From: Psammoneis japonica
Lineage: Eukaryota
Reading direction: 5' to 3'
Assembly (NCBI GenBank): GCA_008632985.1
Contig: QPGO01000237.1
Span: 1 to 64,000 of the forward strand
Length of the DNA stretch: 64,000 nt
Part shown: in pieces, positions 4,973 through 55,722 of the stretch
Position numbering within the stretch: position 1 is the first letter of the stretch
Layout: the number at the start of each line of letters is the position of its first letter
Notes under the pieces: model-generated
The model's input: only the letters and a program-made list of their open reading frames with translations
Database searches by the model: none
Told to the model about the DNA's origin: nothing
Translations under genes and position numbers: made by a program

Positions 4973-5218
4973 TGACAGGATTTGAACAAGATTTTAGCTT
5001 GTCACACATGATTATGTGTGCTCTTAGTTCCGCGTGCGATGCGCGATGCAGTTTGCTTTCAAGCCACATGGCTCACAAGAACAACAACAGAAGTGCCAAT
5101 GTTAACGACACCAGTCTTTCAGCTCCTGCAACAGTCTCTGCATGGAGACTCATCGGCCATTTAGACAGCAGCAAGGAGTCATTGTTTTCTTCCACCCAGT
5201 CATTTTCAATTTCTGTCA
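4973..5218 (+). repeat. 3' LTR of the older family-B copia
   Basis: PPT GGGGAG then TGACAGGATTTGAAC...TTTCTGTCA; related to the element B LTRs. Confidence 0.85.
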
Positions 5219-7267: not shown

Positions 7268-7397
7268 TGACAGAAATTGAAGATGACTGGTTGGAAATGA
7301 ACAACAACTTCTCACTGCTGTCTAAATGGCAGATGAGTCTCTGTGCAGAGACGGTCACAGGAGCTGAAAGACTGGTGTTGTTGACATCAAGTGCACA
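7268..7397 (-). repeat. Partial family-B LTR, inverted relative to 4973-5218
   Basis: TGACAGAAATTGAAGATGACTGG...CTGCTGTCTAAATGGCAGATGAGTCTC matches the reverse complement of 5110-5218. Confidence 0.8.
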
Positions 7398-16372: not shown

Positions 16373-16437
16373 GATGCAAACTTAGCACAGAATGTAGCTT
16401 CTTGTGTCTTTATGTCACAGATCTCCTGGCACTTCTG

Positions 16438-16752
16438 TGTGACATTTTAGAAAGACTGTGGACATTCCAAAGATGTCCAATCTTCTTAGAGTTTCTACAT
16501 GGCTGAGTCAGATGTCAGAAAGTTTCAATGCAAGTGTCAAACCTCCACCGTGACCCTTAGTGCACATTCTACGTGAGTGACATTCGAAGAATGTCTGTTT
16601 TCTGACGTGGCATCATCCAAGATCTTTTGGATCACAAAACAAGAGATTCACTTTTAGACCAGTTTTAGCTCATAATTTCAATTAAGCACGAGTTAGCAAG
16701 ACAACTCATTGCTAATTTACTGGCTTTTAGCACCTTGTGCTGATCGAAAGCA
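16438..16752 (+). repeat. 5' LTR of element C
   Basis: TGTGACATTTTAGAAAG...; direct repeat of 29697-30011; right end approximate. Confidence 0.88.
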
Positions 16753-18639: not shown

Positions 18640-20849
18640 GTGCGAAGTTGTCTTTCACAAGATGGTCTATGCTCACACCTCCACCATGACCACACACCAT
18701 TCAAACGAGAGTCGAGACCGGAACCAGCATCCTGCGACTCCGACTCCTTCATCATCAGTGTCGACAACCACGCCACATGCACTGTGTCCAATGACTGTTC
18801 CCACTTCATTGGCGCTCTTCATCACACGAATAAATGGATCAAGGGAGCAGGTGGGTGGTTAAACACAGAAGGGGAAGGTACACTCAAATGGTGCATTGAA
18901 GATGACGCTGGACAAGTGCACACAATCACCATCCACGACGCATTGCATGTTCCCAACTTACCCATTTGCCTCCTCTGCCCTCAGCAATGGAGCCAGCAAG
19001 CTCAGGATCATTGTCCTGAACCACACGGAACAACTTCCTGGAACTGAGATGACGGTCTCCTGCTCATGTGGGATCAAAGGAAGCACACGAGTCTGGTCCC
19101 TTGGACCAACAACTCCAATGTTGCATGCTTCCATTCTGCACCCAGTGCTGCCAACTGTCGGGTGTTCGCCGCCGCAGTCAATGCTGATGACGACATCGAG
19201 ACTGTCAAGCACGTAGCCTGTCAAACACACATGATGCCTGCAAACCACAAAAGTGACCCTGAGTCCACGGACGCTGTGAATGACAAAGACGCCCTCACAA
19301 GTCCTGACGAGACAGGTCCTGACGAGACCCAAGGTGCACGCAACAATGTTGATGAGGAAGTGCCACTGTTGTTCAAACCAACAGATGCTGCACACAGATC
19401 CGACTCACCTGATGAGAACCTCAGAGATCTGGCAACCCCAAAAGTCCAAACCAAACTGCCAGATCCCATCAATGTCATGCCTGACGATGATGCCCCAGCG
19501 GCCACCGACAACCAAGGTGAAATGTTGCATTGGCACCATCGCCTCGGACACCAATCATTCAAGATGATCAAGCTCCTAGCTGCATTGGGTGTCCTCCCAC
19601 AACGCCTCCTGAAGGTCAAGGAACCCAAATGTGCCAGTTGCCTCTACGGTGCCATGACCAAACGCCCTTGGCATGCCAAATCCAAATGGAAATCGAACAT
19701 GCATGTTGCTACAAAGCCAGGGGAGGTCACATTGGTTGATCAGCTCGAAAGCTCCACCCCAGGTTTCATCCCTCAACTCAAAGGCAGACCCACAAAGCAA
19801 AGACACAGAGTGGCAACAGTGTTTGTCGATCACTGCTCCAAACTCGGATGTGTGTTTCTGCAACGGTCACTCACCTCGGACGAAACGCTCAAAGCCAAAC
19901 ACGCATTTGAAGCCTTTGCAAGACGACATCATGTGCCAATCAAGCACTGCCACGCCGACAACGGCCGATTTGCAGACAACGCTTTCACACAAGATGTTGA
20001 GAAACAAGGTCAGACAATCTTGCACTGCAGTGTGAACGCCCACTTCCAAAATGGAATCGCTGAAAAGCGAATTCGTGACCTACAAGAACAGACTCGAAAG
20101 CAGCTCCTACACGCAAAAGCAAGGTGGCCATCGGCCATTGAGATCAATCTCTGGCCAAGTGCACTGCGCAATTCGAACAAGCTCAAGAACAACTCACCAA
20201 ACCATGAAGACGGAACTTCACCGATCGAACGATTCGCGTCCGTTGAGGCAGCTCCAAACCTCAAGCAGCACCATGCTTTCGGATGCCCGGTCTGTGCGCT
20301 GGACAATCATCTGCAAAGCAGTCAGAGCCTGCCTAAATGGAATCCAAGAGCAAGGTTAGGCCTGTGCTTGGGTCCATCTCCAAGGCACACAGGATCAGTT
20401 GGCCTGGTCCTAAATCTGGAAACCGGACTTACCTCGCCTCAATTTCACGTTCAACACGACGATTTCTTTGAGACTGTACGACCTTCGGCAGGGAATCCAC
20501 CAACATTCTCGCAATGGCAAACTGCATCAGGACTCAAGAAACAAAAGATGTCAAGATTTAATGTCTTCAAGCCACAAAGGGAAACAAGGGAGCCCAACTC
20601 CAGCACTGCATTGGCCAGCTCCGATGCCAGAACCGGAAATTCCACCACAACTTGACATTCAAGATTTCCTGACTGTTGATGATGAAACGTTCGAACCAAT
20701 GCAAGACTCTGCACCTGCAGACACTGAAGAGACGGCTCCAGAGCAAACAAGTGTTAGCAAATCAGGAAGAGTGCGCAGACCAACGCAACGGATGATGGAA
20801 AGTCAGGAACAATGAGCCGCCGGAATTGTGTCCCATCAAGCACCCCATT
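18640..20849 (+). pseudogene. pol: copia protease, GAG-pre-integrase and integrase (element C)
   Basis: ISVDNHAT protease motif, WHHRLGH...CASC, VDQLES, ADNGRF, QNGIAEKRI, FGCPV, SPQFHV. Confidence 0.92.
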
Positions 20850-20854
20850 GCGAG

Positions 20855-21130
20855 TGACAGAAATTGAAGGCAAATGGCAAGAATTCAAACAACAACTCCT
20901 TGCTGCTGTCTAAATGGCAGATGAGTCTCCGCTCAGAGACCGTTGCAGGAGCCGAGAGACGTGCAAGTCGGTATAATCGGGCTACTGTTGCCATTCTTGT
21001 GAGCCTTGTGGCTCGAAAGCAAACTACATCGCGCGTGAACGCGCGGAACTAAAGCACACAAAACTGTGCGCGGTAAACTAAACAGCGCGCAATGCTTCGC
21101 GCGCATCCAAATCCTGTTCAAATCCTGTCA
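20855..21130 (-). repeat. 3' LTR of element B
   Basis: Differs from the 5' LTR at 9 of 276 positions by manual alignment. Confidence 0.97.
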
Positions 21131-24100
21131 CTCCCCAGTTTGCTTGAGGAGCCACAGAAACAGATTCGACTTCGGATGGAATGAAGTTCCAGAACATGAG
21201 GGGTCGGAGAAGGTCCCAGATTTGGGAGTGACCCCAATGCTTGCTGAGAATGTCAGCAGGGTTGCGGGAGCCTTCGATGAAGTGGAACTCAAGGTAACCA
21301 GAGGCAATTGCCTCACGCACACGGTGGAACGATAGTGTGGTGTGTCGCTTGTGTAACTTGGAGTGCGGGATGGTGGCACTGTCTACAACCGACTTGTTGT
21401 CACCGAACATGTAACTGACATTACGGATCGGGACGCCAAGGTAGCGCAGGGTGATGCGCAGGTCGACAATCTGCTCAACACAATTCCTTGCGGCAACAAA
21501 TTCAGATCCGCAGGTTGCAGTCTCCACGGTGGCTTGTTTCTTGGAGAACCAATCAGCCGGGAATTTGTTGAGGAAGTGGAGCATTCCCATGACAGAGCGT
21601 CCGGTGAGCATGCAATGGTACAAGTTTGCATCGACGTAGTGGGTGGTAGTGACGAACTTGCCAAGGGGCGGTGGAGCGTCCTTCGGGATCATCTCTTCTG
21701 CTTCACCATACACGGAATGCATCCATTCGTAGGCCGGAGCAGGGAGATCCGAACAGTCGGGCTCTTCCGTGCGAACGCGGAGAGCACCATGTCGCATCTT
21801 GGAGAGGCACCCACAGACGTGTTTGGCACGATCCAAGTGGCCTTGACGGGGCGCAGCTCGGAAGCTAGAGAGTGACATGACGGCCGTGGTAATGTCAATT
21901 CGACCAAGGGACACTGCCCATTGGAGTGAACCAACAAGAGACTGGAACTTGTGAATGCCATCGGGTCCCAGCAGTTCGGAAGTGTCCAGTTCGGGGTGGT
22001 CACCCTTCTCTAGAGGTGACAGGGCGTTGGTGGCAGGTTTCTCCCCAAACAGTCGGGCGTAGCTGTCGACCATGCGCTCGATGTACTTGCGCGGAGACAG
22101 GCACAAGGTTCCGTCGGGGTCCCGGGAAAAGTCGCAACCCAGATGGAACTCAATGGGTCCCGCACCCTTGAGCTTGAACTTGTACTTTTCCGTGAGAGTG
22201 TCGACGAAAGATTGAGGGTCCTTCATGGCAATGGCGAGGTCATCCACATAAACGGCAATGTATTCATAGTGGTCGTCGTTCCTGCGCATCCAAATGTCGG
22301 GTTCGGCGCGGCAGGGGAAGAAGCCTTCAGCTCGCAGGCAGTCGGCGAAGCGCTCGTGCCAGCGGAGACCGGAGCTGCGGAGTCCATACAGTGCCTTGTG
22401 GATGACAAGGATGTGTCCTTCGAGTTTGCCAAATTCGGGTCCAGCTACAATGTAAAGCTTCTCCTTGGTGGTGGCTTCAAGGTGGGCATTGCCAATGTCG
22501 GTGGCCCATGTCTCCAGCTCGTTGAGTTCGGCCAGGAAAATCATCAGCCGAAGGCCACGAAGGGAGACTACTCCGGAGTGGACACTGTCGACAGGTACGT
22601 CCGTGAGGTGCCCGTCGGCTGCGAGTCGTGCCTTGTGGCGACCGTCGTGTTTCACGTCGTACACCAGGTGCACTCGGATCTTCTTGTGTCCCGCAGGAGG
22701 AGTGGAAGACTTGAAGGGCCCGCAGTCATGGAAGACTTCGTATTCGTCGAGTTGGTCCATCTCGAGATTAGTTGCGTCTCCCCACTTGCGGTTGCCGTTG
22801 CGTTCGTCTAGTGACATGGCGTGTTTGTAGTTCCGGGGAACTTCGTGTCCGTACTTGTAGCGAGGTGCAGTGCGGAAGGAGCGAAGCTTGGCTTGGTTGG
22901 CCATGCGAAACAGCTTCTTTTGGCGCCTCGCGATGGTGCGGAACCGCTTCCATCCATCCGTGTCGAGGAGTCCGTTCTCTCGTGCATAGATGGCACAGGT
23001 GACGGGGTCGTCCTTGGCGATGATGGCAAGAGGCTCGGACGTGATCTCCCACTTTCCCATTCAAGCATGATGTTGTAGCTTGAGCCTTTCCAGGTTGGGT
23101 CATGAGGCTTCAGAGGGCCTTCGTGTGACACGATGCGTCGAAATTTCCAAATGGTGGTGTCTTCGTCTTCTTGCTCAATGTGATTCATGATGTCATTGTA
23201 GGCAAGGACTTCCTCGTATTCGTCATTGTTGACAGAGCAGACGAACTTAGTGAGCTCGGGATTGCCGTTCACTTTCCATTCGTGGTCTTCGACGGCCTTG
23301 ACGATGCGAGCTCTGTGGCGTTGTCCGTCCTCTTGTGGCTGCATGAGGAAGGTACGTCCAATGATGTCTTGCGGATCGAAAACTGGCATCTTGGGTGTCC
23401 TGATCTCCCCATCAGGAGAATCGACGGGGTTGTCATCATGGCGAGATTTGATGATGGGCACAGGTGGCTCCCCATCAGGAGGATCAAGACGCAGGTTTCG
23501 AACGGCAGGATCGGGGGTGGCGGAGCGAACGTTGGACCGGCAGAGGATCTTCTGAGTCTCGTCAGATAGAATCTTGAAGGTCATCTGGTGGCCGACGTGC
23601 TCAGCAATGCCAACGAAGCGTCCACGCAACTCACGAGATTCGGACGGCCAATCGGAGTCATCGAGGTGGAAGTACACTGGTTCCCACCAGTGAAAGCGAA
23701 GCAATGGGCTGATGTCCGGGGTGGATCCAGTGAGAGTCTCGAGGGGCGTGCGCCAGTGGAGACGTGGGGACGCTGTATGGTTGAGCATGAAGCACACGTA
23801 CATGAGCGCCAGCAGCCATGTGTGGGCGGGCGAACCAAAGCGGTCCATGACAGTGTTCGCCATGCGCTTCACAGTCTGGTGTCGACGCTCGGCAAAGTTT
23901 TGGTGTTGCTGGTGAGGCTCACTTTGCCAGCTGGAGATGAAGAGGGCGCGTAGGATCCCGAGCACTTTGTTGCTGATCTCAACTTGAGCACGGTCGCTAA
24001 TGAGTTTGGATGGGGCACCACGTTCACGGATCTGATCCTCGAGTGTGTTGACAAACTCTTTGTCCGTCTTAGTGCCGTAGACGTCAGTGACGGTAGACTC

Positions 24101-26746
24101 GGTGCCAACAAACAGTTGGGCGCTGGTGCAACCAGAGTCGACGGCCGGGGTGTCGGCACAAACGGTGTCAGTGGCGACAGGCTCGTTGCGACGGTGCACA
24201 TTAAGGGCGGGGTTGGGTGATTTGAAGGCCTTGCGAAGGTGTGTACCGGCGGGCATGCGGGCGTACTGCGTGGTGCAGTCAAAAGTACGATGGACCGTGT
24301 CGGCAGGTAGGAAGCCAAAGTAAGGCCGAAGAGACTCGAAGGGGGGGTCCTTGGGCTGTACAGTGCGCTCCGGAGGTGGAACGTCATCGCCCTTGGGGTC
24401 AATCGCATGCAGATGACACTCGTAGAACACGTCGTCATTCGGAATGAGGTGATCATCGAGGGCGGACGCGTGATCGGCAGACAAGGAAGCGGACAAGATG
24501 GTCTCGTTGACAACGACACGGTGACGGTAGTTGCCGTATTCGTCAAATAGGTTGGCAGTGGGATCGTCCTGTAGGTCAGAGATCGCGTCGTACCACTGGT
24601 CATCGTCAGTGACAGAGTGATCGAGGACGGAAGGGTCCCATGTGTCATCACCGGTGAGGATGACGTGGGGCAGGGTGTCCCATTCGGCGTCAGTGTAAGG
24701 TCGCATGGCAACATAAGGCAGGCCAGCCTTGATGTCAATGGGGATGACATAGCCATCAGGAGTGGCAATACATTGCAAGCCGTTGGGCACCTTGACAGAG
24801 CGATCGTTGACATCCTGTTTGTACCATTCGAGCTGGCCGCAGGAATGGATGGTCTTGCCCTTTCCCGTGTGTGCGCACTGATGGAGGATGGCGATGACGG
24901 GACCACACTGGGTCTCAATGATGGCACCAGCGGTGACAATGGGGATGTCCACCAATTGATGATCGTCAATGCCCTGAACGTCGACTTGGCGAGAGGTGCG
25001 TGCGATGACGCGGACGTCATCGCCAGCAATGCCGCCGTTGGCCCCACGATCGACTAGAGCGCCAGTGCGTGTGGAGCGATGAGCAGAGGCAGAGTAAATG
25101 ACATTGTGGTTGTCAACGCGGCAGCAAGTGCGGCCGTTAAGTTCTGTGTCATCTGCAGAAGCTGGCGGGGTAGAGGAAGCGGCGGATGGCCCCGGTCGAC
25201 TGGCACTGGGGGCTTGGTTAGGAGACAACAGACGTTGCAGATCACCGGGTGGCAGTGGCTTGCGCTTGGTGAGGTGCGCCAGGACAGGATTATCCGAAAT
25301 GGCATCCACATGTGCAGCGGAGTCACCATAGTCAGCAGGAGTCGTGTTGGACAAGTTGACATCACCGTCACTCCCAAGGTGTTGGTCGTGAAGGTTGGCC
25401 GTAACAGACTCATGGTAGTCACTGGCTCGCGGGTTGCGGGGAGGCGGACGAGAGTGCTCAAGGATGATCGCCTTGGAGGAATCGGGCAACGAATCCCAGA
25501 GCCGTTGGTGGTCGGGAGGGAGACGTCTCCATTGGACACCGGTGAGGCTGGGACCACGGGTGTAGGCAGCATTGGCGTGAAGGACGTCAACGTCGCTGTC
25601 AATGTCGTAGAACACATCGTCGGACGGTTCCTCGGAGTGGACGTCGTGTGCGCATATGGCGCGTCGGGGAGCTCGAGGTGTCGTCTTGGGTTGGAACGTG
25701 CTGTCGTACTGAGCTGCCACGGAGAGGAGCAAGCCACAGCATTGATCGTATGTGAGGCTCTTGCCACTCTGCGTACGATGCTGATCAGCTTGGTTCTTGA
25801 CAGCACGGAGTTCCTCGACAGGGTGCACGGCATTCTCGAGCATGACGCGCTTCTGTCCTTCAGAGAAGTGGTCGCTGGCGGGGATGAGTGCCTCGTACTT
25901 GCACAACTGATCTTGCCAATGAAGGATGAACCCGTGGGTCGGACCTTTCCAAGTGCCATCACCAAGACGTGCGGTGGTGAGGTACGTGAGCAGGGTGGAG
26001 GACTCGACAGATGCACGGGTGGAGGCAAGCGCGCATTCAGACAAGGAGCGGCAGACGGTCTGTGCGTCAGAGGACCCCACATTTTCGCGAATGAGAGCCT
26101 TGCCCTTGTCGGTGAGAAGGATGCGTTCGAAGACGGCGAACATGCACTTTTGCTGTTCAGCAAAGAGCAGTTTGTCTTCGGGGCTGGTCGGTTTGTACGA
26201 CGAGTCTAGAATGCACTCGACGTCTTGGGCACGGGCTTGTGCCACAAGTGAGGTGTGCCAAGTGTGCCACTGCTTGTCGGATTTGAGAGCCGTGAAAGCG
26301 GTGGGATCACGCTTGATGCCTCGTTTGAAGTCTCGCACCGGGTCGCGTGCCTTGGTCGGGTTGGTGACATGTGGAGGTGCAAGGGGTGAGCTGCCGATGG
26401 ACAGAGAGGACATGTAGTCCGGGCTGAGGCGGCAGGCAAGGAACTCGTCATGCGTGAACAAAGAGGAGTCGTTGGCAACGTCAAGACCTTTGTGTGCTTT
26501 GACAATGTACAGGCTAACCAGTGCTGCTAACATGTTCTTATAACCACGGGGCAAAGGGATTACATTGGTGCCGTTGTCGTACTCAAGCGAGTCGATTTGG
26601 GACGGCATGAACGTGAATAGTTCCTGATACGAGTCCGTGCCGTCTTGGGCCAAAGCCAAACGAAGAGGACTCCCAGCACCTTGGGCAAGCACGGTTCCAA
26701 CAACGTGCTCGAAACCATCGGTTTGTTGCTGACGAGTGAGAACCAT
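21078..26746 (-). pseudogene. gag-pol: gag-pol polyprotein of element B with one frameshift near 23050
   Basis: ORFs 22808-26776 and 21078-23060; LVDRGANG protease, ATDT...ISDRA...QNFAERR integrase, YVDDL RT, YVDANL/ADILSK RNase H; 1-nt loss (GAAAGTGGGAG versus GAGAATGGGGAG in the paralogue at ~3028). Confidence 0.95.
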
Positions 26747-27685
26747 GGTGGACAAAAGTGGTGTCAGGACAATCAATTCTGGTTGGGAAGCGAAGGTAGA
26801 CTCGAAACTTGGGTGAGAATAGACTTGACTTGAAACAGACTTGACTTGAAATCTTGAACTATCTTAAAATCAGAAGTCGCCGGGCTTTGTTATCCCGTTC
26901 GTTGTTAAGTGCTAAACTTCCTATCCGGTCCGTAGAGTTGTGCCGGCACGTCTGAACCCGCAGCTAGTGGCGCTTTGGGTTGCTTACGAGTGGAGTAGCG
27001 GGTTGTAAACCCCTGCAGGTAAGCTGACTAGAGGTGGACAAGACCCCCGAACCGTTCTTATTTTATATCGGTTGGATTTCCCGATCAGGCTGGCCAGTTG
27101 ACGTAGGCGTTAGGCGCTGTGGACGAACGAACAAACGCGGGAAAGCACCCTCGCCCCAACGTAGGCTGTAATCACGGCTGCTTGCTCTCACAGTCATCCT
27201 CGTGGACCTAGCAGAACTGTAGAGCACCAGTAGTCCGGGGTAGATCAGGTACAATGGACTCGGTGTGCTTGTAGAGTGGTAGCAAAACCGTAGTCCGAAG
27301 AGTGGGTACAGGTTCTTGGCCGTGAAGATATGTATATATATATATGTCTTCAGCGACGAAGATCTCTGAATATGTAGGGTTCTTGACCGTTAACCGATGA
27401 ATAGGTATATCAAGGGATGAGGATCAAGGATAGACTTGGATATGACCGTTGAATGTATGTCTTCAGCGATCAAAGGTAGTATAATCAATCCAGATATCCA
27501 GCGGTAAGGAGACTTGACGGTGATGTTAACTTCCTGCCGATGCCCTGGTATCGAATGCGCGTAGACTTGCCGATGTATGTAGAATATATACGGAGGTCCA
27601 CGTAGAATTGAAATAGCGTCGTTGGTAAATCAACGACGACGATGGCGGTTGCTCAATGGGTTGACAATGAGCAAGACTGTTAATC

Positions 27686-27961
27686 TGACAGAAATTGAAG
27701 GCAAATGGCAAGAATTCAAACAATAACTCCTTACTGCTGTCTAAATAGCAGATGAGTCTCCGCTCAGAGACCGTTACAGGAGCCGAGAGACGTGTAAGTC
27801 GGTATAATCGGGCTACTGTTATTATTCTTGTGAGCCTTGTGGCTCGAAAGCAAACTACATCGCGCGTGAACGCGCGGAACTAAAGCACACAAAACTGTGC
27901 GCGGTAAACTAAACAGCGCGCGATGCTTCGCGCGCATCCAAATCCTGTTCAAATCCTGTCA
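27686..27961 (-). repeat. 5' LTR of element B
   Basis: Followed on the minus strand by the PBS-like GATTAACAGTCTTGC and a ~0.9-kb leader. Confidence 0.97.
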
Positions 27962-27966
27962 GCGAG

Positions 27967-29654
27967 CACTGTGACGCCATGCATGAAGACGACTGCAAAA
28001 CACAAGATGACATGGACTCACCATTTGCCTTTTTGGCAAGAACAGACCCAGACACCATGTGTTTTGACCAAGCTATGAATGAACTGGACCGAGACGAGTT
28101 TGTCAAGGCTTGCATCAAGGAAGTCAACCATCACATTGAACGCAAACACTGGAAACTGATTCCCATTGAAGAAGTTCCAGAGGGAGTCAACACACTCCCA
28201 GCGGTGTGGTCTGTGAAGAGAAAGAGAGACATCAAGACAAGAAAGGCACACAAGTGCAAGTCACGGCTCAATGTGCACGGTGGAAAACAAGAGCATGCGG
28301 TCAATTGTTTCCAAACTTACGCAGCAGTTGTCAATTGGAACACTGTGCGGTTCCTGCTGGTGCCATCCGTCCTGAATGGGTGGCATGCAAGACAAGTGGA
28401 CTTCGTTCTCATGCAACCTCATGCCGACATCAAATTTGACATGTGCACGGAGCTGCCAAAAGGTGTTGAAACCAAACCCGGCAATGGCAGAACCCATGCA
28501 TTGAATTCACTCAAGAACCTGCATGGACAGAAGCAAGCAGGGAGAATGTGGGGTGAGCACTTATGAGAAGGATTGTTGAGAATCGGATTTAAACAATCAG
28601 AAGTCGACGAATGCCTTCAACATCGAGGAAATGTTATTTTCATACATTGCGTCGACAGTGGCATTTTCGCATCACCAGACAAAGCTGCTGTTGACAAGGC
28701 AATCGAAGACATCCACAATGCGAACTTCAACATCGATGATCAAGGCAGTGTTGACAACTGCCTCGGTGTAAACATCGAAACACCACCTGTTGGCAGAATG
28801 AAACTGACGCAACTGCAGATGATCAAGCAAATGCTCGAGATGGTGAACTCACCTCACATCGTGTGCCGGACAAGCAGACTCCAGCAGCATCCTCCAAGAT
28901 GCTACATCAACATGAGAACAAAGAATCTTTTGACGGATCCTTTGACTGTCGCAGCATCATTGGCAAACTGAACTTTCTGGAAAAGAGCACTCCACCTGAT
29001 GTCACATGCGCTGTGCATCAAGTCGCGTGATTTTCCAGCAACCCCAAACAATCACACGGTGAGGCAGTGCTGTGGCTCTGTAAGTGCTTGCAGGCAACCA
29101 GACACGAAGGCATCATTCTGGACCCAAAGGAAGACAAGTCATTGGCAGTTTGTGCTGATGCTGACTTTGCAGGCAATTGGAACAAAATGACTGCCCCTTG
29201 CGACATTGGCACTTAAAAGTCCAGAACAGGGTACATCATCACCTGCACAGACTGCCCCACAGTTTGGACATCTAAGCTTCAGACACAAATCGCGCTAAGT
29301 GCGACAGAAGCCGAGTGTGTCGCTCTGTCCGAGAGTCTCCAAAGCGCCATTCCTGTCATCAATTTGATCAAGGAATTTCAAGAGCATGGATGCAAGGTAC
29401 CATCCAAGACTCCATTGGTTCATTGTAAGGCATTCGAAGACAATTCAGGCACATTGGAAATTGCAAGACTGCCCAAGATGAGACCAAGAACCAAGCATTT
29501 CAATGTGGTGCTACATCACTTCAAGGAACATGTTAGGAAGGGAATCATTTCCATTCTACCCATTGACACCACTGATCAAATTGCAGACATGGAGACCAAG
29601 CCAGTGCCTCAAAATGTGTTTGTTCGCCTTCAAAAGAAGCTCCTCAAGTGGTGA
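27967..29654 (+). pseudogene. pol: copia RT and RNase H (element C, resumes after element B)
   Basis: AVWSVKRKR, KSRLNVHG, QVDFV, LHGQKQAGR, CVDSG (degenerate YVDD), ADADFAG, FEDNSG, RTKH, QIADMETK. Confidence 0.92.
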
Positions 29655-29696
29655 ATTAGATCAAGTCACAGCTTTACCCGACACTTTCAAAGGGAG

Positions 29697-30011
29697 TGTG
29701 ACATTTTAGAAAGACTGTGGACATTCCAAAGACGTCCAATCTTCTTAGAGTTTCTACATGGCTGAGTCAGACATCAGAAAGTTTCAATGCAAGTGTCGAA
29801 CCTCCACCGTGACCCTTAGCACGTGTTCTACGTGAGTGACATTCGAAGAATGTCTGTTTTCTGACATGGCATCATCCAAGATCTTTTGGATCACAAAACA
29901 AGAGATTCACTTTTAGATTAGTTTTAGCTCATAATTTCAACTAAGCACAAGTTGGCAAGACAACTCATTGCCAATTTGCTGGCTTTTAGTGCCTTGCACT
30001 GATTGTCAGCA
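29697..30011 (+). repeat. 3' LTR of element C
   Basis: Follows the PPT; direct repeat of 16438-16752. Confidence 0.88.
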
Positions 30012-32988: not shown

Positions 32989-35900
32989 TGCAAGGTCTAA
33001 CGAGATAAAGACTTGAGTGATGACAAAAGTTGTGAGAGAGAGACCAAGGCAACGAGGTCGCTTTCAGCGAAGCCCGTTGCAACGGCTCCTCTTACATCTA
33101 ACAGGATCATTAACACCACACATCAGAAAAATGGGGTGCGTGACACTGCACTCTTCCCTTCCATGATTCGAATCATGAGAATCATTCGGGACTCCAAAAT
33201 TTTAAAATTTCAATTCAAATTCCATGAGAGGAAACAAGGGAAACCCAAGTGTTGGGGAAAAAACCCTTAACCTCAAACTCGATGTGGTACGACGCGCCAA
33301 ATGTCAAGTCGTTCCACCAAATGAGGCACCCGTTGAACCGCAACAGCACCATTGACATGCACCTGAACAATGGGACAAGGGCCATGTGCTCAAGGTGCGA
33401 GCTTTGAAGGATCAACTGTCTTGACAAGTGCTTGATTGCCAACTTGAAAATCATGAGATCATCGTTTAGCATTTGCTCGGCGGAGATTCGCGTTGACAAT
33501 CACTTGTCGGTGTTCTTGAACAGTGGCAAGATCTGCTAGAACTGGTGGGTCTAAAATCATGTCATGGTGGAACACCATGGCACCGGGTGAAACCTTGAGA
33601 GCTCGGGATGCCACGCATTGCATGGCATGCATTGCTGTTGCCAAAGCATTGTCCACTGGTTGATTGGCCTGTTCGACGTTCTGTGGAGGATAAAGATGAA
33701 GTAAAGTGCATAAGACGTTGCCAATGGTTTGATGCATGCGTTCGCATGCCGCATTGGCTTGTGGATTTCTGGACGCAGTGGGTGCATCTTCCACTCCCGC
33801 CTGTTGCAACAACAGTTGAAAATGTTCTCCAATAAATTCTCTGCCATTGTCATGAATGCAATGATCAGGACGAGGATAATGAGACAACCAACAATTTTGA
33901 AATTGCTGGGAGATGTGTTCGGAGGTTTTGTTGTCCACACGGATGATTTCAGTGACATTCGAAACTGTGCCAATGCAAGTCAAAGCATTGAATTTGATCT
34001 CCTGGTCCTGAGTGTAAATCTTCCAGGGACCAATGAGGTGGACTGCAACTTCATTACATGGTGGCAAAGACGCTTCGCGTTCAGGTAGCTCCCACATCCA
34101 GGACCCAAAGTTTTCAAGCATTGACAATCAGCACAACGAAATTCTTCGCAGGTCCAACAAAGGACAGGATGACAAAAATGCATGCCAATGGTTGAATGCA
34201 TGCAATGCATTCCTGCATGTCCCAATGTCCTGTGATGCCATCGAATCATGTCAGGCAACAGAGCAGCAGGAATGCAGATTTTCCAGTCTGTTGGAGGAGC
34301 ATTGGGATGAGCTCAACAACAAATCACAGGATGTTGGTTCACACATTCAATCACGAATCGTTCCGGATGTTGTTGTCGCATGTTGTTCAATTCCACATCA
34401 ACAAATTGGCACTCTTGAATTCGTTGCACAGTTGTTGGGTTTTGCATTTCATCAAGTGAAGGACAGTTCAAAAACGATTCACACAGTTCCGGATCATCAA
34501 CAAAAGAGGAATGGAATTGAGAGGGTTCTTCTCGACAGCAAGTGAAATGCGACACACGCTCTGGGTTGTCAAGTTCTTCTTCATGAGGCAGCATTGCAGT
34601 GTCGATTGCTTTGAAATCTATCAGTTGCCTTTATTCGGAGCACACTTCCCTTCCATTGGAGGATCCATGCGTGGCAATCGTGAAAAGCAGTCTGCCAACA
34701 GGTTGTCCTTGCCATCAATGTGCTCAAAGGTTGGAGCAAAATCTTCCAAGAAGAGCCTCCACCTGAGCACTCGTTGAGAATTGAGCGTACGAAAGGTGAG
34801 ATTTTTATGATCAGTAAAAACAGTGCAATCAGCTCCAAGTAACATGGAATGGAATTCTTTGAAACACATTGCCACCGCGAGAAGTTCTTTCTCGATGGTT
34901 GAACAATTCTGCTGAGCTGAACTGAGTTTCCGTGACCAACATGCACTGGCTTTTGATCTTGCATGATTGCTGCCCCATTTGACAATCGGAGGAATCGGTG
35001 TAAATGTGGAAGGGCTTGTCATGATTCGGGTAGACCCAAAGGGTGTCATCCATCATCAAAGTCTTCACATCTTCAAAGGCTTTTTGACACTCTGGAGTCC
35101 ATTCCAATTTGCTCTTGCTGGTCAACTTGGTAAGTGGAGCAAGTGCATGAGAACGACAGGGCCACATGTTCCAACAGCAGGTTACCGCGCCGATAAAAGA
35201 TCGTAGTTGCATCACATTCTGAGGAGGTTGCATCTGCAATGCAGCATCAACCTGCTTCTTCCAAGGTCGAACTCCTGTGGGTGTGAGCCAATGGCCCAGA
35301 AAATCAGTCTCTTGGACGCACCACTCGCATTTGAGTGGATTGACCTTGAGATTATTTTCTTCCAGCCTGGACAATGACTTGTCAAGTCGACGCATGTGAG
35401 CATCAAACGAATCATCAAATTGAGCAATGTCATCAATGTGGGCCTCAACATCGAGTCTGTTTGCCGCTTTTTCAATGATGGCTTGAGCAACATCTGGTGA
35501 AGTCTTCAATCCCACAGCTAGTCTGCAATGCCAGAATTTTCCAAATGGAGTGACAATCGTACAAAGGTCCTTGGAGTCGTCGTCCAGCTCAACATGATAA
35601 TAAAACATGGTGAGGTCCAACTTGGTCAAAAATTTGTGCCCTGATCGTCAGTGTAAAACATCTTGAATAATCGGCAGAGGGTAAACTTTCCACTTAAGGA
35701 CCTTGTTCAACTCTCGAAAGTCAGATGCCCACCTCACTCGTCCATCTTTCTTGGGTGTTGCAAAGGTTCCTGCTGCCCATTCCGTTGGTCCCACTGGTTC
35801 TAGCACACCAACATCACAGAGATGTTGCAGCTCCTTCTTAAAAACCGCCTCATCTCATTTGGACGCTTCATGGGCTTTGGAATGAAAGGGAACAGCATTG

Positions 35901-38342
35901 GCATCAACTTCCAAGTGCACAGTCTCGTGTGGACATTTGCCGAGGGTTCCATCAAAAAGAGTTTCATGATTCTCAAGTGCGACTTGAAGTTTATCGCGTT
36001 GCTCCTGCGTCAAAGGAGTTTGCGATTGCACCACTTTTTCGGTTGACACTTTTTCATGCTTTGCATCCAACATGAAGGATTGACTTGATAATTCTTCATC
36101 AGTTTTGTCCTCCTCGTGATCGTCCAGCACATCAACCAATTCTGCACTTGGTTCCAATGATTAGATTGCTTCATCGGGATGCAGCATCCAACCATTTCAC
36201 AACTCCAAACCGGAAATCCAATGCCATGCCGGCTTTAGCCAAGAGTCTTGACCCAATGTCATGTCACACTTGCACGGCAAATCAAACACTTGAGCCACAA
36301 TTCCATCAACTTGCCCAGACTTGTCAAACTCAGGAAGCACCAAATCTTTCATGACAACACATCGGGAGGATTCATGTCATCTCCGGCTGCTGTCTGAAAG
36401 CTCAGTTGTCCCTCATCATTCACAGTTGGATTGGCTCCCTTGGGTAAAACTCGAGAATGCACAAGTGTGTCAGTGCCCCCTGAATCTAACAATGCACGCA
36501 ACACTCGCTTGCTCTCTTGATTTTGAATTGCAGCGCTGCCATTAACGTCGCAGGCACCACATTCAATGGTTCAGGAGTCACAGTTTTTGGGATTGGCACA
36601 GTGCACTCCAAGGCACTGCCCATTTCTTCTTCATTCACAGCACAGGATTCCATCAGGTCCCCCACACTTTCATCAACATTAAAACACATGTGTTCATCAC
36701 AATCACACGAAACATAAAAAAGATTGAGCGACATGCTCTGACTCGGGCACTTCCGTCCCTTGTCAATTACGCCAACTGCATTGGCCTTGAGGAAAATGAC
36801 CACCTTGGTTGCACCCATTTCCACCTCGCGTCTCACAAGGCCCTCCTTGACCAAAATGGTGTGACTCCATTTGCCAGCCACCAGGAGGAGCTGTTCCAGC
36901 CGGATTTCCACAGCCTTGGGCATCACCGTTAGCTTTGGTGCCATTTTGATTTTGACAATGAGATTCTCTGCCTTGGGAATTTTTAGATCCTTGGCAGTTG
37001 CCACATCCTCGGCCACCATAATTGCCTTGATTGCCACAGCTGCCATGTCCTCGACCTTGGAAGTTGCCACGACCTCCTCGGCCTTGTGAACCTCCACCTT
37101 GGAAGTTTCCACGGCCTCCACCTCGACCTCCACCACAACCTCCACAGTCTGTCCTTGGTCAACAGTTTTGGCCACCCGGATTCAGAATGCAATCCTTCCA
37201 TTTGTGGTCATGATTGGCATGCACTGGGCACCCAGACTCTGGTTCAGCTCGAGTGTCATTCCCTCGACTTCGCCCAGAAGCCTGAGAGGATGAAGCATTG
37301 CTCTTTTGCTTCTTGTCCTGTTTCTAGTTGCTGCTCTTGTCAGCAAAGGATTTCTCATTGTTCATGTGGCTGACAATCTCAGCAAGACTGTCGTCAGCTG
37401 TTGATCATCCTGCTCAAGCACACATCTCACGCCACGAACGAGGAAAGCTGTCGAAGATCATCATCTTCTTCTGAGCGTCATCAACTTGATGAGCATTTCC
37501 TGGCAAATTGTTAGAAAAGCGAATTAAGGTCTCCATGCAATCAGCATGTGCCTGCACTTCAGATTTGAACAGTTTCTTCAGGGTCAGTGAGCATTCAATC
37601 ATGGTGTCACGTGCCTCATTGTCACAATAAGACAGGTAAAACCGATTCATCTCTTGATCAAAATGCGCAACAGTTTTGTCAGCATCAGCGATGGCGTCAG
37701 TCAAATTCGCCCATTTGTCCTCAGCAGCATCGGTTGACACTTCTTTGAAATTATCAAACAATTCCTCACCAGCAGTGAACTCCATTTTCACGGCAATCTT
37801 ATGGAAACGATCCTTGACAAACAACAAAGCTTCAACACCATGGGTGCCATCAAAACGCGGACACTTTCGAGTGCGCGTGCTACCATCATCATACGACTGA
37901 TTCAATTTCACGTCCTCCAAATCAGAATGTTCGAATTTTGCCTCACAATCAATGCAGGTTCTTTTAACGAATCACTCATCATACAATGTGGAACACAATT
38001 GCGAAACAGTCCTCTCCAGGGACTCTACCTTTGACTCCAAATGCGTTGTTGTTGTGCTTGTTTCTGGTGGTCAATCGCCCAAGCTGCTGCTCTTGCTCGT
38101 AATTCTCTTTTCTCACGTTCAGTCAATCTGTTTGCATTGTTCCTGGTCTCCATCCAGTTCTTGAGTTGACTGTAATTACAGTGCAAGGTCTAACGAGATG
38201 AAGACTTGAGTGACAACAAAGTTGTGAGAGAGAGACCGAGGCAACGAGGTCACTTTCAGTGAAGCCCGTTACAACGGCTCCTCTTATGTCTAATGGGATC
38301 ATCAATGCCACACATCAGAAAAATAGGGTGCGCGACACTGCA
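32989..38342 (-). mobile_element. Ty3/gypsy LTR retrotransposon (element D), degenerate
   Basis: LTRs 32989-33150 and 38182-38342 with TGCA...TGCA ends; TSD GTTTC at 32984-32988 and 38343-38347; minus-strand PPT at 33151-33163; order gag-PR-RT-RH-IN. Confidence 0.95.
33270..37920 (-). pseudogene. gag-pol: gypsy gag-pol of element D
   Basis: KLDLTMFYY, HIDDI (degenerate YIDD), [59 protein letters not shown]. Confidence 0.92.
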
Positions 38343-40697: not shown

Positions 40698-43600
40698 ATG
40701 TCAGATGAACTCCGTCCATCCACTGATGAGGATTTCCGTCGCCGTATGATGGAGACAGTTGATGGTTTTGTTCACGCTGACGCTGCTCGTTGTTCGGAGG
40801 AACAGATGGCAAAGGATGCAAAGGCTGCTGTGTCAAGATCGGCAGAAGCAATGGCAGAAGCCCGTCGTGCCGTTGTGGCTGCAACGAGAGACACACCATT
40901 CAGACAATGACTGTGTTGTTGCAGTGGAAAATTGCAGCCAAGCGGAAATGAGTTTCCAACGCTTTCTTCACGGTAACGCATTTGACACAAAAGAACTGGG
41001 GCTCCCAATCTCCTGCACTGTGCTCGAAGAACGAGTACAAACGAAAGTAGAATCAAGTGTGAAAAGTGAAAATTATGAGATTAAATTTTACTCTGTGATT
41101 TTTGGTTTCTCCAAACGAGTTCTCAATGGCCTGAAGCTTCTGCACTGCTTCTACAGACAAAAGGCCTTTCGGAGAATATGTTTGTGACAACAGATTGTCC
41201 GGATACGATTGCCATTGACACGTGAGATGTCAACATCGTTGCAATTCTCGACATCCGATCAACTCTGTGTGATCGTTCTGTCCTTTGTGCGCATCCACGA
41301 CTGTGGTGCGATTGACGTGTAAACAACATGTAATCATAAACATGTACACAACAGTTGCACACTGCATTTGCCTCCCTAATTGCACATTAGAGTCATTTGT
41401 TAAGTGGATCATTCGACGGACATTGACAGTGTCAACAATGTCTCCACGTTCACTGCATTGTGCCATTGGCAATGACTGTCATGTTGTTGTTTTATACAGG
41501 CCAGCACACACAGGGCCGTTTCATTTTCCAAATGTCTTTCGAGATTGTCATGGTTTGTCTCACGCTTTATGTGTGTGTGTGACGCTCTATTTGTGTGTGA
41601 GTGTGAACATGCTGCAGCATTGCGTCGAGTGTTCTCTCTGACATTATTTTGTTCATTTGGACACACGGACCAATTGTCCTGCTGTTCTTTCATGGTGTCG
41701 ATTGTACATGGCATTTTGCCCAGTGCTCGATGTGCGCACTTAATTGGCGTTCACTCACTTGCTTGTGGATTTCGTGCAGTTTGGCGGGCTCATTTTACAT
41801 GCCACATTGCTCTGCTGCACTGCCACGTTTCACAAGTGATGATTAACGATGGTCAAGGACAAGACCATTTCGTCTTGACATATTCGATCCTGTGAGGGTT
41901 GTGAATTTTCCATTGTGATTGTGGATTTTTTTGTATTTCAACCATCTATCAGTTGGATTTTAATCGTCATTTGGACGTTTCTTTCTGACATGCCGGTGTC
42001 ATTTTGTCATTCCGAAGGCACTGCTTTCGTGCACCAGTGGACAAATGTCCATTTTTCTTCTCTTTTTCTAGATCTTTGGCACATCTCGTGTGTCGACATG
42101 ATGTACATTTTAATGTCTTGCCTCGTACATTGTACAACACAACCGTACGGGTGTTGTGAGATTGTCTTTTGCCAGTGTGAAGTGGATGCTGTGGAGGTAG
42201 ACGGAAAGAATACAACCCTGGGTACAACTGCGTAGGGTCTAGTACTTCTTCTACAGGGTCACCAGGAAAGCACAGACACCGACTTCCGCTACATCAACCT
42301 GCAGCACCATCCAAGACGCGCAGCTGCGAAGACAACCAAAAAAGAAAACGATCGCAACAATGGCCTCCCTTGCGTCGCTGATATCTATGTCTATTTTTGC
42401 CGTATTTTCCCGTTTCTTTTCGCAGCATTCGGAGCTTTTATACAAGTGACATGATGGGCTAGTGGTGCTGGCGTTGAGTTCAATCCATCGAGGCGGATTT
42501 GTCGCTGAAGGTGCAGTGCAGAAATTGTGAGAATGCAGCATCAACATGACGGATTTTTGTGATGTACTATTGCACCTTTGGTGTTGTTTCTCACTTCTTG
42601 TCATCATTTTGACGTATGTGCCACAAGGTGTCCACGGGGCTTGGGTTTTTATGGTGCTGACTTTCTCTTCGGAACTTATCGTTGAATAATCAAAATTGAG
42701 CTGCCACTGGAATTTATGGTAAAGAGTTGGCGGCGGTGACATCTCAACATCCCTTGGGCCGATTTTCGCGATTCTTGTTTCATTGTCAATGGAAATTGTA
42801 CAAGGAATCCAAGAGGCTTGGTTTTGTTGTGCAAAATTCCATTCTGTGCAGATGGATTTATTGGATGCCGTGCGCACAGAAATGATGCTTCAATTGGAAG
42901 GGGCGCTCCAGCGATGTTGTGGATTGAACAAGGAAGAATGAAGCCCTAGACACACACTACATGTAACAAGAATATTAAATGTGAATGTTAAACATGGCAC
43001 GGGGTTTTTTACGTCAGTTGATCGTGTCGGGTTGCCTTGATTTGACAGAACATTCCACGGCACCAACCGGTTTGACATGTGGCTGGAAATCGGCTTCCTC
43101 CAGTGTTCCAACCAATTTGACCTTGCTTGCATGGGCAAGCTGTTGTCGCCTGGTTCGGGCGTTCCATGCGCCTTTAGACCCATCCACCACGACATCGTTG
43201 GGGGTTGTTTGAATGGCCTCTGGTTGGTGAAGTCTTGTTCACATTGACAAGTCACCCCGCCAAGAAATAACGTGAGTGCTGTCAAGGTTAGCTTGTAATA
43301 CTTTTTAGACGGCATGGTCTCGGTTGTATTGTTGCATAAATCTATCAAAAACGCGACGTACCATGCAACAACCCGGTTGTTTCGATACGGGAAAAATTCC
43401 CGTGCTTCCTCCACAAGAACACGGAAGATACGGTCGCTGAAGTGGGGTAACGGTCAGTACAATGTGTAGAATTCAACGGAGAAATACTACGGAATACAAC
43501 ATGGGTTGTATTCCCGGGATAATGTAATAGTACACCAATCTGTCACAGAGTTTTTTTCTAACCGTCCTTTAAAATAAGGCGATTTTATCCTTATGACATG

Positions 43601-46600: not shown

Positions 46601-47864
46601 AGACGCATTTCTTGGATCTGATCGACTCGGAACTTGCATTCTCTGCAACCATAACTTGGTGTAGATTTTTTTTGACAATGCGGTGTACTTGTAGAGTCCT
46701 TGATCCTTGGATGCTTGGAATGGACCGCACTGGAACGAATCTTGTCATTTGCTAGACGAAAAACAGCGTTCCATCTTGAGGCACTGCTCGGATTGAGCTT
46801 CTTCCGCTCGGAAATCGATTCTAGCAGAACTGATGCGATTCGTCCCTGTTTATAGAAGAATTTACAAAGGCACATTAGTTAAAATTTTCATCTTCCGTGC
46901 TTTTTACCTTCTGTGGTGTGTATACACAATGCACTGTGCTCGAAGAACGAGTACAAACGAAAGTAGAATCAAGTGTGAAAAGTGAAAATTATGAGATTAA
47001 ATTTTACTCTGTGATTTTTGGTTTCTCCGAACGAGTTCTCAATGGCCTAAAGCTTCTGTACTGCTTCTACAGACAAAAGGCCTTTCGGAGAATACATTCG
47101 TGACAACAGATTGTCCGGATACGATTGCCATTGACACGTAAGATGTCAACATCGTCAATCGATCGTATTTGCAATTCTCGACATCCGATCAACTCTGTGT
47201 GATCGTTCTGTCCTTTGTACGCATCCACGACTGTGGTGCGATTGACACATGAACAACACATAATCACAAACATGCATGTAACAGTCGCATGCTGCACTCC
47301 GTTGCGCGACATCAAAAATCAGAATTAAGGCCACACATGCTGCACAGCTGTGACTCGACGTTGCTTCTGAGAAGCCTCAGGGCAAATTCTGACACAGACG
47401 CCACAAGAGTAGAGAGGGAGCAATCTGCGATTAACAGCATTGATGAATCCATCCACCACCGTGCCGTGCCACTCCTTCGAAGGCAACATCTAACACAGCC
47501 GCTGCACGTCCTGAAGGATGCAATCACGTTGCTCCACGAGGCCCTGGACGATTTGAGAAGGAAAGACGTTGCCTTGCAGCGACAGTGGGAAGCTTTGTAT
47601 GATCTGAGGCCAGGCACAGATCAAATGCGTGGAGGGATGTGGACCTCGATCCGGGCTGTGGACGAAGAAGCCGTGGCAAGAGAAAGGGTCCTGCAGTTGG
47701 CATTGCAAATCGAGGCACAATTGGTGGCTGTCAACCAGCCTGACCACAGCGCCGACTTTCAGCAGGCGATTGTGGCTGCCAGGGAACATTTCATGGCTAA
47801 TTCTGAAAGGATCAAATTCATCATGTTTGCAAGAAAGAGTTGGGAAATCACTGTGAGTGAATGA
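40698..47864 (+). pseudogene. Helical accessory ORF of element F, split by element G (40698-41013 plus 47301-47864)
   Basis: Rejoining at the CTCC TSD gives in-frame ELGLPIS-VARHQ. Confidence 0.55.
41014..47296 (-). mobile_element. Non-autonomous gypsy-derived LTR element (G)
   Basis: LTRs 41014-41366 and 46930-47296 with TGCA...TGCA ends; 4-bp TSD CTCC; decayed gypsy RT motif YPLPNIQEILLK near 44590. Confidence 0.85.
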
Positions 47865-50800: not shown

Positions 50801-51155
50801 CATGCATGTTGTGGTTTGATGAAATGGAGGACATGTCATCCATTCCGTGCGGTGCGTCATCCTGGGAGGGGAACAAGGGGCTGCTGCTCGGATCACTCAT
50901 TGAAGATCTTGGGAATCTGCTGCGAGCAGATCGCCTTGGATGGGATTCATCATCATCAGAGGACGAAGAGGAAGAACCACCGCTTTCTTCGGGTGGCCCC
51001 TCTATTGTGGCAGGAATGTCACTTTGATCTGGGATTAGATCTTGGGTTTGCAACTCTTGGGCAACTGAGTGACACGTCGGTGAGCATCTCCAATGGCAGG
51101 CCATTCGCAAAAAACTTTGGCCACAACCGGGACAGAGAAGAGGGTTTCCGTCCAT
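47860..51155 (-). pseudogene. Plavaka-type transposase
   Basis: N-terminal CPGC..H zinc finger; YLDKT, GDAKSGD..C, CRFC, DMMHLFENG, WKLQKLH..LH, NFDAGLGE, GPWHDFA; TGA (from CGA) at ~49860. Confidence 0.85.
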
Positions 51156-55003: not shown

Positions 55004-55454
55004 TGACAGGATTTGAACAGGATTCAGGTGCGCGCAAAATGTCGCGCACTGTTTAGTTTACCACGCACAGTTTTGTGTGCTTTAGTTCCACGCGTTCGCG
55101 CGCGATGTAGTTTGCTTTCGAGCCACAAGGCTCACAAGAATGACAACAGTGGCCCGATTGTGTCAACTTGCACGTCTTTTGGCTCCTGTGATGGTCTCTG
55201 AGCGGAGACTCATCTGCTGTTTAGACAGCAGCAAGGAGTCATTGTTTGAATTCTTGCCATTTGCCTTCAATTTCTGTCAGATTAACAGTCTTGCTCATTG
55301 TCAACCCATTGAGCAACCGCCATCATCGTCGTTGATTTACCAACGACGCTTTTCAATTCTGCGTGGACCTCCGTGTATGTTCTACGTGCACATCGGCAAG
55401 TCTACGCGCATTTAACACCAGGCATCGGCTGGAATTTAACGTCACCGTCAAATC
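55004..55454 (+). repeat. Family-B 5' LTR (55004-55279) plus PBS and ~175 bp of leader, truncated
   Basis: Matches the reverse complement of 27961-27510. Confidence 0.92.
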
Positions 55455-55722
55455 TGGCTTGTCATGTGTAACTGCGAAATGGTCATTTGTGCAACTACGA
55501 ACCGTTGCAACAATTGACAAATTAAGACAAAATGGGTCATTTCGGTCATTGCACAAATGTTTGAAAATTTGGATAAGAAGAAACCAGGCATGAATGTAAG
55601 ATGAGTCATGTTTGTTTTGCGTGCAGAAACCACCAAAAATGATTTGTGATGATTTTGTGACCCAGTGAGCCAAACGCATCCGGCCGGGAAAAGAACCATC
55701 CCATGCTCCAAATGCTGTTCAA

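Follow-up and report, generated by a model that had tools for sequence, protein, structure and literature searches.

Element B, a complete long terminal repeat (LTR) retrotransposon at 20855-27961 of the 64-kb stretch of DNA analysed here (the window), has lost TpA dinucleotides to TpG and CpA since it inserted, and this loss is specific for TA and exceeds the background of other substitutions. It is likely that the same process has acted across nearly the whole window and on most copies of the element B family. The two LTRs of the element are 276 bp long, 96.7% identical and have TG..CA termini. The open reading frames (ORFs) of element B lie on the minus strand, thus 27686-27961 is the 5' LTR and 20855-21130 the 3' LTR. 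A gap-free alignment of these two intervals gave exactly nine differences, in full agreement with an earlier note on this DNA, which had listed seven changes of TpA to TpG or CpA, one of CpG to CpA and one of T to C. At 20893, 20902, 20916, 20945, 20964, 20990 and 20992, the 5' LTR has TA and the 3' LTR has CA or TG. Four of these changes led to TG (A>G) and three to CA (T>C), so both strands were struck. The other two differences are a T/C at the T just before a TA (20991) and a CG in the 5' LTR that is CA in the 3' LTR (21091). The 5' LTR, the 3' LTR and an older family member in the window, copy C (read as reverse complement), contain 15, 8 and 5 TA steps, and 21, 20 and 15 CG steps, respectively. 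Within the element B pair, 7 of 15 TA sites were lost versus 1 of 21 CG sites (Fisher p = 0.0047). Since the LTRs were identical at insertion, the changes must be post-insertional, and this part of the earlier reading held up.

That TA is the ancestral state is supported by four independent lines of evidence: LTR relatives, protein outgroups, family copies and older LTR pairs. For the LTR relatives, both element B LTRs were aligned with copy C (reverse complement) and with LTR fragments D and E of a related family. At LTR columns 39, 48, 62, 91 and 138, which represent five of the seven TA sites, the relatives A, C, D and E include both TG and CA, whereas the copies without TA have only TG at column 136 and only CA at column 110. 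The occurrence of both TG and CA in the relatives indicates that TA is ancestral, because it joins all states by single steps. CG as ancestor is much less plausible at those five columns, as it would need a double change in the 5' LTR at every site. Copy C had been credited with such a third state at a single site, and it does show it there, but the same holds for three sites in total (columns 39, 62 and 91). In addition, copy C, and fragment D where it can be aligned, match the 5' LTR at the T/C site (column 137) and at the CG/CA site (column 237), which places the derived state of all nine differences in the 3' LTR. The suggestion that the derived state always lies in the 3' LTR, while the 5' LTR keeps TA, therefore agrees with both the minus-strand ORFs and the outgroup copies C and D. 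In the 176 bp of leader common to B and C, element B keeps TA at five sites that were lost in C, and there are no reverse cases.

For the protein outgroups, 60 full-length homologues of 1700-2000 residues, the first of this kind among 120 listed, were aligned with the two ORF fragments of element B, which were kept separate. Columns with at least 60% agreement among the 60 homologues were considered conserved, which gave 1027 columns, and element B is identical to the homologue majority at 885 of them. The single-step replacements in element B comprise 23 TA losses (one ambiguous with a transversion), no TA gains, 14 CG losses and 4 CG gains, and the remaining replacements are 42 multi-step changes and ~59 others. 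Expressed per nonsynonymous opportunity, TA loss occurred in 23/114, TA gain in 0/232, CG loss in 14/280 and CG gain in 4/276 cases. The TA-loss events are scattered throughout the coding region (21230-26053). The difference between TA loss and CG loss in the coding region (p = 1e-5), together with that in the LTRs, bears out the claim that TpA loss outpaces CpG decay. The same loss is visible at the 47 conserved Tyr columns, where element B has 29 Tyr, 8 Cys, 4 His, 5 Phe and 1 Trp. Cys or His is thus found at 12 of 47 columns in element B, compared to 44 of 2804 cells in the homologues (p = 3e-11), with at most three per homologue.

The element B family is hugely abundant: the 13211 contig pieces of run X1 amount to a summed depth of ~1e5, versus ~35 at the unique flank. 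To compare the copies, contigs of four runs (X1-X4, all from one sample and one study) were mapped on 21131-28300 at 85% likeness. The places in run X1 that differ from element B comprise 116 A>G, 133 T>C, 63 G>A and 44 C>T changes, and 41 transversions. Among the 40 of ~400 differing places that were listed, 19 have TA in element B and CA or TG elsewhere, compared to 3 with the opposite pattern; there are also 2 CG>CA changes and 3 transversions. Other family contigs contain CA (share 0.43) as well as TG (0.30) at 24244/24245. Fifteen of the 19 listed TA rows are nonsynonymous, and the residue of element B is the homologue majority at 14 of these and the alternative residue at none. Twelve of the listed rows are Tyr codons kept by element B, with Tyr as the homologue majority at 11 of the 12, and at some kept Tyr codons 90-100% of the other family contig depth encodes Cys. 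[quoted passage not shown] At many sites, the plain majority indeed has TG or CA, whose shares reach 0.99-1.0, but the direction is not RIP-like: the naive majority shows these states because most copies have decayed, and would mislead on direction. Finally, the older LTR pairs contain 14 adjacent TG-versus-CA doublets and, as the members of an LTR pair are identical at birth, such a doublet requires that both copies have changed, from either TA or CG.

Rates were compared over four LTR pairs, those of element B and of element A, the older retrotransposon in which element B is nested, and those at 41014/46930 and 32989/38182. Their 68 differing positions consist of 23 TA singles, 14 CG singles, 28 positions in the 14 doublets, and 3 others, so that 65 of the 68 are linked to TA or CG, and transversions are absent. 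Differences were found at 23 of 53 TA sites (43%), at 14 of 57 CG sites (25%) and at only 3 of 850 other columns, which means that nearly all LTR divergence in the window is TA or CG decay. Each of the three other differences (20991, and columns 222 and 245 of the element A alignment) is a T/C at the T immediately 5' of a TA. Read on the opposite strand, the changed base is the A that directly follows a TA, so that the neighbouring A may occasionally be edited as well.

A matching footprint extends over the window, which has an observed/expected ratio (obs/exp) of 0.27 for TA, 0.64 for CG and ~1.5 for TG and CA, with values of 0.1-0.2 for TA and up to 2.0 for TG/CA in old segments. Using the cut-offs of the Bigelowiella natans study discussed below, 54 of 64 1-kb segments have a rho TpA of 0.43 or lower, and 31 of 64 also have a rho CpA+TpG of 1.52 or higher. 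Across these segments, the obs/exp of TA and that of CA+TG are inversely correlated (r = -0.76). The erosion is uneven, with uneroded patches at 26.7-28.0 kb and 43-46 kb. The interior of 41014-47296 has a GC content of 40-44%, a TA obs/exp of 0.58-0.81, a CG obs/exp of ~1.2-1.3, and no recognisable ORF or Pfam match; this uneroded island, whose LTRs nevertheless differ at 22 TA- or CG-linked positions, may be a non-autonomous element or a spared patch. An A>G or T>C change at TA cannot produce a stop codon. TA loss therefore never makes stops, and long ORFs persist in dead copies and in all six frames. Long stop-free frames are found on both strands and in several frames, e.g. 25058-26209 on the plus strand, 383 codons antisense to pol. 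Such frames are to be expected where TA, and with it TAA and TAG, is rare, and gene finders would over-call them.

The earlier note had stressed that only one LTR was changed. For element B this is real, with 7 versus 0 TA changes (p = 0.0063, 30 TA sites) and 9 versus 0 changes overall (p = 0.0039), both values being uncorrected and for one pair chosen of five. It is not supported as a rule here, however, since the other four pairs changed on both LTRs, and their TA-keeping sites are divided 3:1 (5' : 3' LTR) in element A, and 3:5, 2:2 and 3:2 in pairs of unknown orientation. Compared to the coding-region rate of ~20%, one LTR has lost fewer TA sites and the other more; at that rate, the chance of no losses in 15 sites is ~0.035 by our own arithmetic, and that of at least 7 losses in 15 is estimated at a few percent. 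The 5' LTR and the 940-bp leader together form an uneroded block, with a TA obs/exp of 0.62-1.16 and a TG+CA obs/exp of ~1.0. Within the 3' LTR, 7 of 11 TA sites changed in columns 39-138 versus 0 of 4 beyond, but this clustering is not significant. The TA changes in this LTR, 4 A>G and 3 T>C, involve both strands, and a single processive event on one strand would not suffice to explain them. We read the one-sidedness as patchiness or chance, and not as a rule about 5' and 3' LTRs. The TA gradient along element B was also considered as a sign of a regional mutator and was set aside as confounded, since it contrasts a TA-rich leader, which is non-coding, with a TA-poor coding part.

The edited A is followed by C in 19 of 26 events (7 in the LTR and 19 listed contig rows), compared to 129 of 348 background TA strand-sites of the element (p = 6e-4), and G follows in 2 of 26 events and in 4 of 45 strand-sites among the LTR singles. 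The 14 doublets have a purine 5' of TA in all 14 cases and a pyrimidine 3' in 12, i.e. a pyrimidine after the A on both strands. Arranged by following base, the LTR singles amount to 9/50 for C, 3/25 for T, 7/69 for A and 4/45 for G, no more than a trend (p = 0.26). The Tyr losses of element B itself (TAC 7/35 versus TAT 3/10, p = 0.67) show no preference for TAC. A strict T-A-C motif is therefore only tentative, as the contig events favour it but the Tyr codons of element B do not. A preference of the editing for T-A-pyrimidine is tentatively suggested. LTR differences that arise after integration need a change in DNA, owing to the way LTRs are synthesised. RNA editing can thus not make two integrated LTRs differ, and an ADAR-type activity does not match the data in this respect. 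A-to-I editing, which reads as A-to-G, is common to ADAR and TadA/ADAT2, and both accept an A preceded by U; Table 1 of a review lists 5'UAG as the motif of ADAR1/2, which act on double-stranded RNA, and 5'ACG as that of TadA/ADAT2 (PMC10661471). A 3' G is not favoured here and the context data lean away from ADAR, whereas the weak 3' C preference would fit the TadA/ADAT2 motif better.

We propose that, after its insertion, the DNA of element B would have been struck by a process that turns TpA into TpG or CpA, by an A-to-G transition on either strand of the self-complementary TA step. Relative to substitution at ordinary positions, this process would be at least ~100 times faster, and it would be somewhat faster than CpG decay. 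Most copies of the very abundant family, and nearly all of the 64-kb window, would have been eroded by it as well. A candidate agent is enzymatic deamination of adenine in DNA by a TadA/ADAT-type deaminase or similar, which may be aimed at transposons or silent chromatin, as proposed for B. natans. The process probably acts in patches or episodes: so far, it would have affected 7/15 TA in the 3' LTR and ~20% of the TA opportunities that could be detected in the coding region, while sparing the 5' LTR and leader. A more far-reaching proposal is that a diatom-like alga possesses a mirror image of RIP, a DNA adenine-editing defence with a TadA/ADAT-like T-A-pyrimidine context that erases TpA from LTR retrotransposons in patches smaller than the element, with the 5' LTR and leader spared here. 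This combination is possible, but we consider it rather doubtful.

Several points weigh against the proposed process. The putative deaminase is borrowed from the hypothesis of a preprint, and no enzyme or base modification was seen here. Without a host gene in the window, targeting of transposons is not separable from a genome-wide bias. CpG decay accompanies TA decay (TA versus CG obs/exp, r = 0.73), and a faster loss of TA than of CG is not uniform, since in element A 5 of 8 CG sites differ versus 4 of 14 TA sites. The 14 doublets could come from CG as well as TA. The seven LTR sites are not among the 40 of ~400 contig differences listed, and the losses in the coding region may in part predate the insertion. 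The 7:0 split between the LTRs is only marginally significant once five pairs are allowed for, and coding constraints confound the comparison of the coding part, with its low TA, to the leader.

One alternative is a RIP-like process, with TG/CA as the ancestral state and TA gained in the 5' LTR by C-to-T changes at CpA/TpG. Like the process proposed here, RIP in ascomycete fungi introduces many transitions into repeated or mobile DNA, always within the same dinucleotide context, and so inactivates this DNA. However, RIP is a C>T change at CpA that enriches TpA, whereas here TpA is destroyed and CpA/TpG enriched, which is its mirror image, by a process that cannot create stop codons and lets long ORFs persist. 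Copy C matches the 3' LTR at four of the seven sites, and at several internal sites 90-100% of the other family depth has CA or TG where element B has TA, and both points count in favour of this alternative. Yet the relatives carry both TG and CA at five of the seven sites, none of the 232 opportunities for TA gain in the coding region was used, the Tyr of element B is the homologue-conserved residue at the high-share sites, the window is TA-poor (obs/exp 0.27) and not TA-rich, and the ORFs of 1351 and 660 codons are open, without stop codons. A RIP-like origin is therefore hardly credible. Very improbable, too, is an artefact of assembly or polishing, in which reads of thousands of decayed copies pulled one LTR towards the states of the family majority. 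In its favour, TG or CA is found in most copies of a highly repeated family, but other LTR pairs and the coding region share the signature and have their own polarity tests, and both the TG-versus-CA doublets and the three-state sites are unlike the outcome of majority polishing. Moreover, a run contig matches the right junction (27939-28120) without any difference, although the contig mapping covered 21131-28300 and thus not the 3' LTR.

Two further alternatives accept the mutator or its direction, and question other parts of the explanation. The mutator could be real while the one-sidedness comes from ectopic gene conversion, either by a decayed copy that overwrote the 3' LTR, or by a young copy that refreshed the 5' LTR and leader. 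The extreme abundance of the family (summed depth ~1e5 versus ~35 on the unique flank), the location of eight of the nine differences within LTR columns 39-138, and the TA-rich block of ~1.3 kb formed by the 5' LTR and leader would all suit such an event, and the intact target-site duplication is compatible with it. However, no donor was identified, four TA sites in columns 39-138 are unchanged, the contrast of 7/11 versus 0/4 elsewhere is not significant, and the sole change in the tract that is neither TA nor CG is a T>C beside TA, so there is no mark of a foreign donor. We consider gene conversion unlikely. Likewise, the direction could be the same but the chemistry different, when a modified T (of the hydroxymethyl-uracil type) or a modified A (N6-methyl-A) in TA mispairs or is misrepaired, without a dedicated adenine deaminase. 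With 4 A>G and 3 T>C changes in the LTR, the two strands of the self-complementary TA are struck to a similar extent, symmetric dinucleotide marks such as CpG methylation behave alike, and TA and CG decay go together across the window. On the other hand, this explanation draws on general knowledge only, and the doublets, with their purine-TA-pyrimidine pattern, favour neither of the two chemistries. We consider this route quite an improbable replacement for a deaminase.

Among known systems, the process proposed here most resembles the hypermutation in Bigelowiella natans described in a preprint (Mettrop et al., bioRxiv 10.64898/2026.01.13.699255). In mutation-accumulation lines of this organism, two integrated viral regions mutate at ~6e-7 per site per generation, and the changes are exclusively TpA>TpG/CpA, in integrated giant-virus and virophage DNA. 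The region from the nucleocytoplasmic large DNA virus (NCLDV) was mutated in 11 of 15 lines, and the process is reported to be episodic. In the same organism, reverse transcriptase and DDE domains are over-represented in TpA-poor genes. The study counted 124 clusters, each made up of three or more consecutive 1-kb windows, singled out a whole-scaffold cluster of only 4360 bp, and proposed an ADAT2-like deaminase. The main text of the preprint contains no occurrence of LTR, copia, retrotransposon or diatom. Both cases have A>G/T>C changes at TpA that give TpG/CpA, integrated foreign or mobile DNA as target, a rate that exceeds background by orders of magnitude, a long-term footprint in which TpA is reduced and CpA+TpG raised, and, probably in the present case, a patchy or episodic character. 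Of these traits, the type of TpA change, a relative rate far above the local background, and the footprint poor in TpA and rich in CpA+TpG were found here. The differences are that here LTR retrotransposons of a hugely amplified copia family are affected, with diatom sequences as the nearest protein clusters, that the erosion spans almost the whole 64-kb window with CpG decay alongside, and that the evidence is comparative, whereas in B. natans it comes from a mutation-accumulation experiment. Given the nearly complete erosion of 64 kb and the very high copy number of the family, the organism studied here is probably not B. natans. Decay of methylated CpG by deamination is alike in that a self-complementary dinucleotide decays to TG/CA on either strand, and it operates here too (14/57 CG sites differ), but it cannot account for the loss of TA (7/15 TA versus 1/21 CG in element B). 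The copia-like CoDi elements of diatoms (Maumus et al. 2009, PMC2806351) are comparable in being of the Ty1/copia type, and the integrase region of element B has its closest matches among diatom protein clusters. The main text of that paper does not mention RIP, point mutation or dinucleotide. In the literature searched, there was no report of TpA-specific decay of diatom transposons. The process here appears to be a new instance of a recently described kind, with a new class of target and, probably, a new host lineage.

The features of element B and of the related sequences in the window are listed in Table 1. The TG..CA LTRs, a 5-bp target-site duplication, and an RVT_2-type reverse transcriptase (RT) downstream of the integrase identify element B as a Ty1/copia-type LTR retrotransposon, which is young, lies on the minus strand and has inserted into an older copia element. 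The latter, element A, lies on the plus strand and has Pfam matches to gag_pre-integrase (19048-20655) and RVT_2 (27913-28566). An extra C after 23047 is present in other family contigs, at depths of 18134/34216 in X1, 29.1/29.1 in X2, 38.9/44.6 in X3 and 56.2/83.1 in X4. This large share indicates that the copy analysed here probably carries a 1-bp deletion. A Pfam scan of the upstream 1351-codon ORF matched no family, and 797 database proteins match its integrase region at E <= 0.001, the best with 63-64% identity. The nearest protein-atlas clusters of this ORF are 'integrase catalytic domain' fragments (score 0.98), with few taxon labels, mostly diatom. These nearest integrase clusters provide a lead that the host of the element B family may be diatom-like. 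A metagenome scan with a 20-nt LTR pattern gave four loci, all chance matches of 21-25 nt, and no family copies.

Table 1. Coordinates of element B and of related repeats in the window
Feature	Position	Strand	Remarks
Left target-site duplication GCGAG	20850..20854		5 bp, sequence read directly
3' LTR, element B	20855..21130	-	276 bp; all 9 derived states: 7 TA>TG/CA, 1 CG>CA, 1 T>C beside TA
Purine-rich stretch, putatively polypurine-tract-like	21131..21142	-	directly upstream of 3' LTR
RT-domain ORF, 660 codons	21078..23060	-	RVT_2, E 5.5e-27 (Pfam)
Probable 1-bp deletion splitting gag-pol into two frames	23047		extra C after this base in other family contigs
gag, protease and integrase ORF (P0001), 1351 codons	22808..26863	-	first in-frame ATG at 26746
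Non-coding leader between 5' LTR and gag	26747..27685	-	TA obs/exp 0.62-1.16, TG+CA ~1.0; not eroded
5' LTR, element B	27686..27961	-	all 15 TA and 21 CG kept; 0 derived changes
Right target-site duplication GCGAG	27962..27966		sequence read directly
5' LTR, element A (copia-type; host of the element B insertion)	16437..16744	+	LTR pair comparison
3' LTR, element A	29696..30003	+	pair has 21 differences, 19 TA- or CG-linked
Older copy C, same family	55004..55455	+	LTR 55004-55279 and 176 bp of leader; ~90% identical; 5 TA left; outgroup
LTR fragment D, related family	4973..5187	-	~81% identical; outgroup
LTR fragment E, related family	7268..7372	+	~80% identical; outgroup
LTR pair, first member	41014..41366		partner 46930..47296; 22 differences, all TA- or CG-linked
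LTR pair, second member	46930..47296		partner 41014..41366
Repeat pair, first member	32989..33150		partner 38182..38342; 16 differences, all TA- or CG-linked
Repeat pair, second member	38182..38342		partner 32989..33150

The remainder of the window contains no recognisable host gene, the 40.5-47.5 kb region included, and a Pfam scan of 12 further long ORFs gave matches only in two parts of element A. A 788-codon ORF on the minus strand (47490-49856) matches no Pfam family and is directly followed by a 433-codon ORF (49860-51161); this region possibly encodes a decayed mobile-element protein. Just outside the 3' LTR of element A, there is a tandem array with a period of 183 (30116-30923, 4.3 copies, 82% matches), and a second array, with a period of 132 and 3.1-3.7 copies, is located at 62310-62800. 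An inverted repeat of ~195 bp, 86% identical, is formed by 60556-60750 and 60826-61010, with the arms 75 bp apart.

As the members of an LTR pair are identical at birth, they represent a built-in mutation-accumulation experiment. The LTR pairs analysed here provide sequence-level evidence, independent of a single 2026 preprint, that mobile DNA undergoes TpA-directed hypermutation, probably on retrotransposons and in a second lineage of algae, and they add detail on its rate, its context and its unevenness within an element. A pyrimidine following the edited A, as the context data suggest, offers a starting point for choosing among deaminase candidates. In such genomes, LTR-based dating of insertions is invalid, family consensus sequences are biased towards decayed states, and gene finders will call long 'intact' ORFs in dead elements. 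If the reading as a mirror image of RIP is true, thousands of dead elements would keep intact-looking ORFs, and dating by LTR divergence would be meaningless. If the host is a stramenopile, the process known from a rhizarian would occur widely among marine algae, and LTR pairs would offer a ready-made natural assay for it in any assembly.

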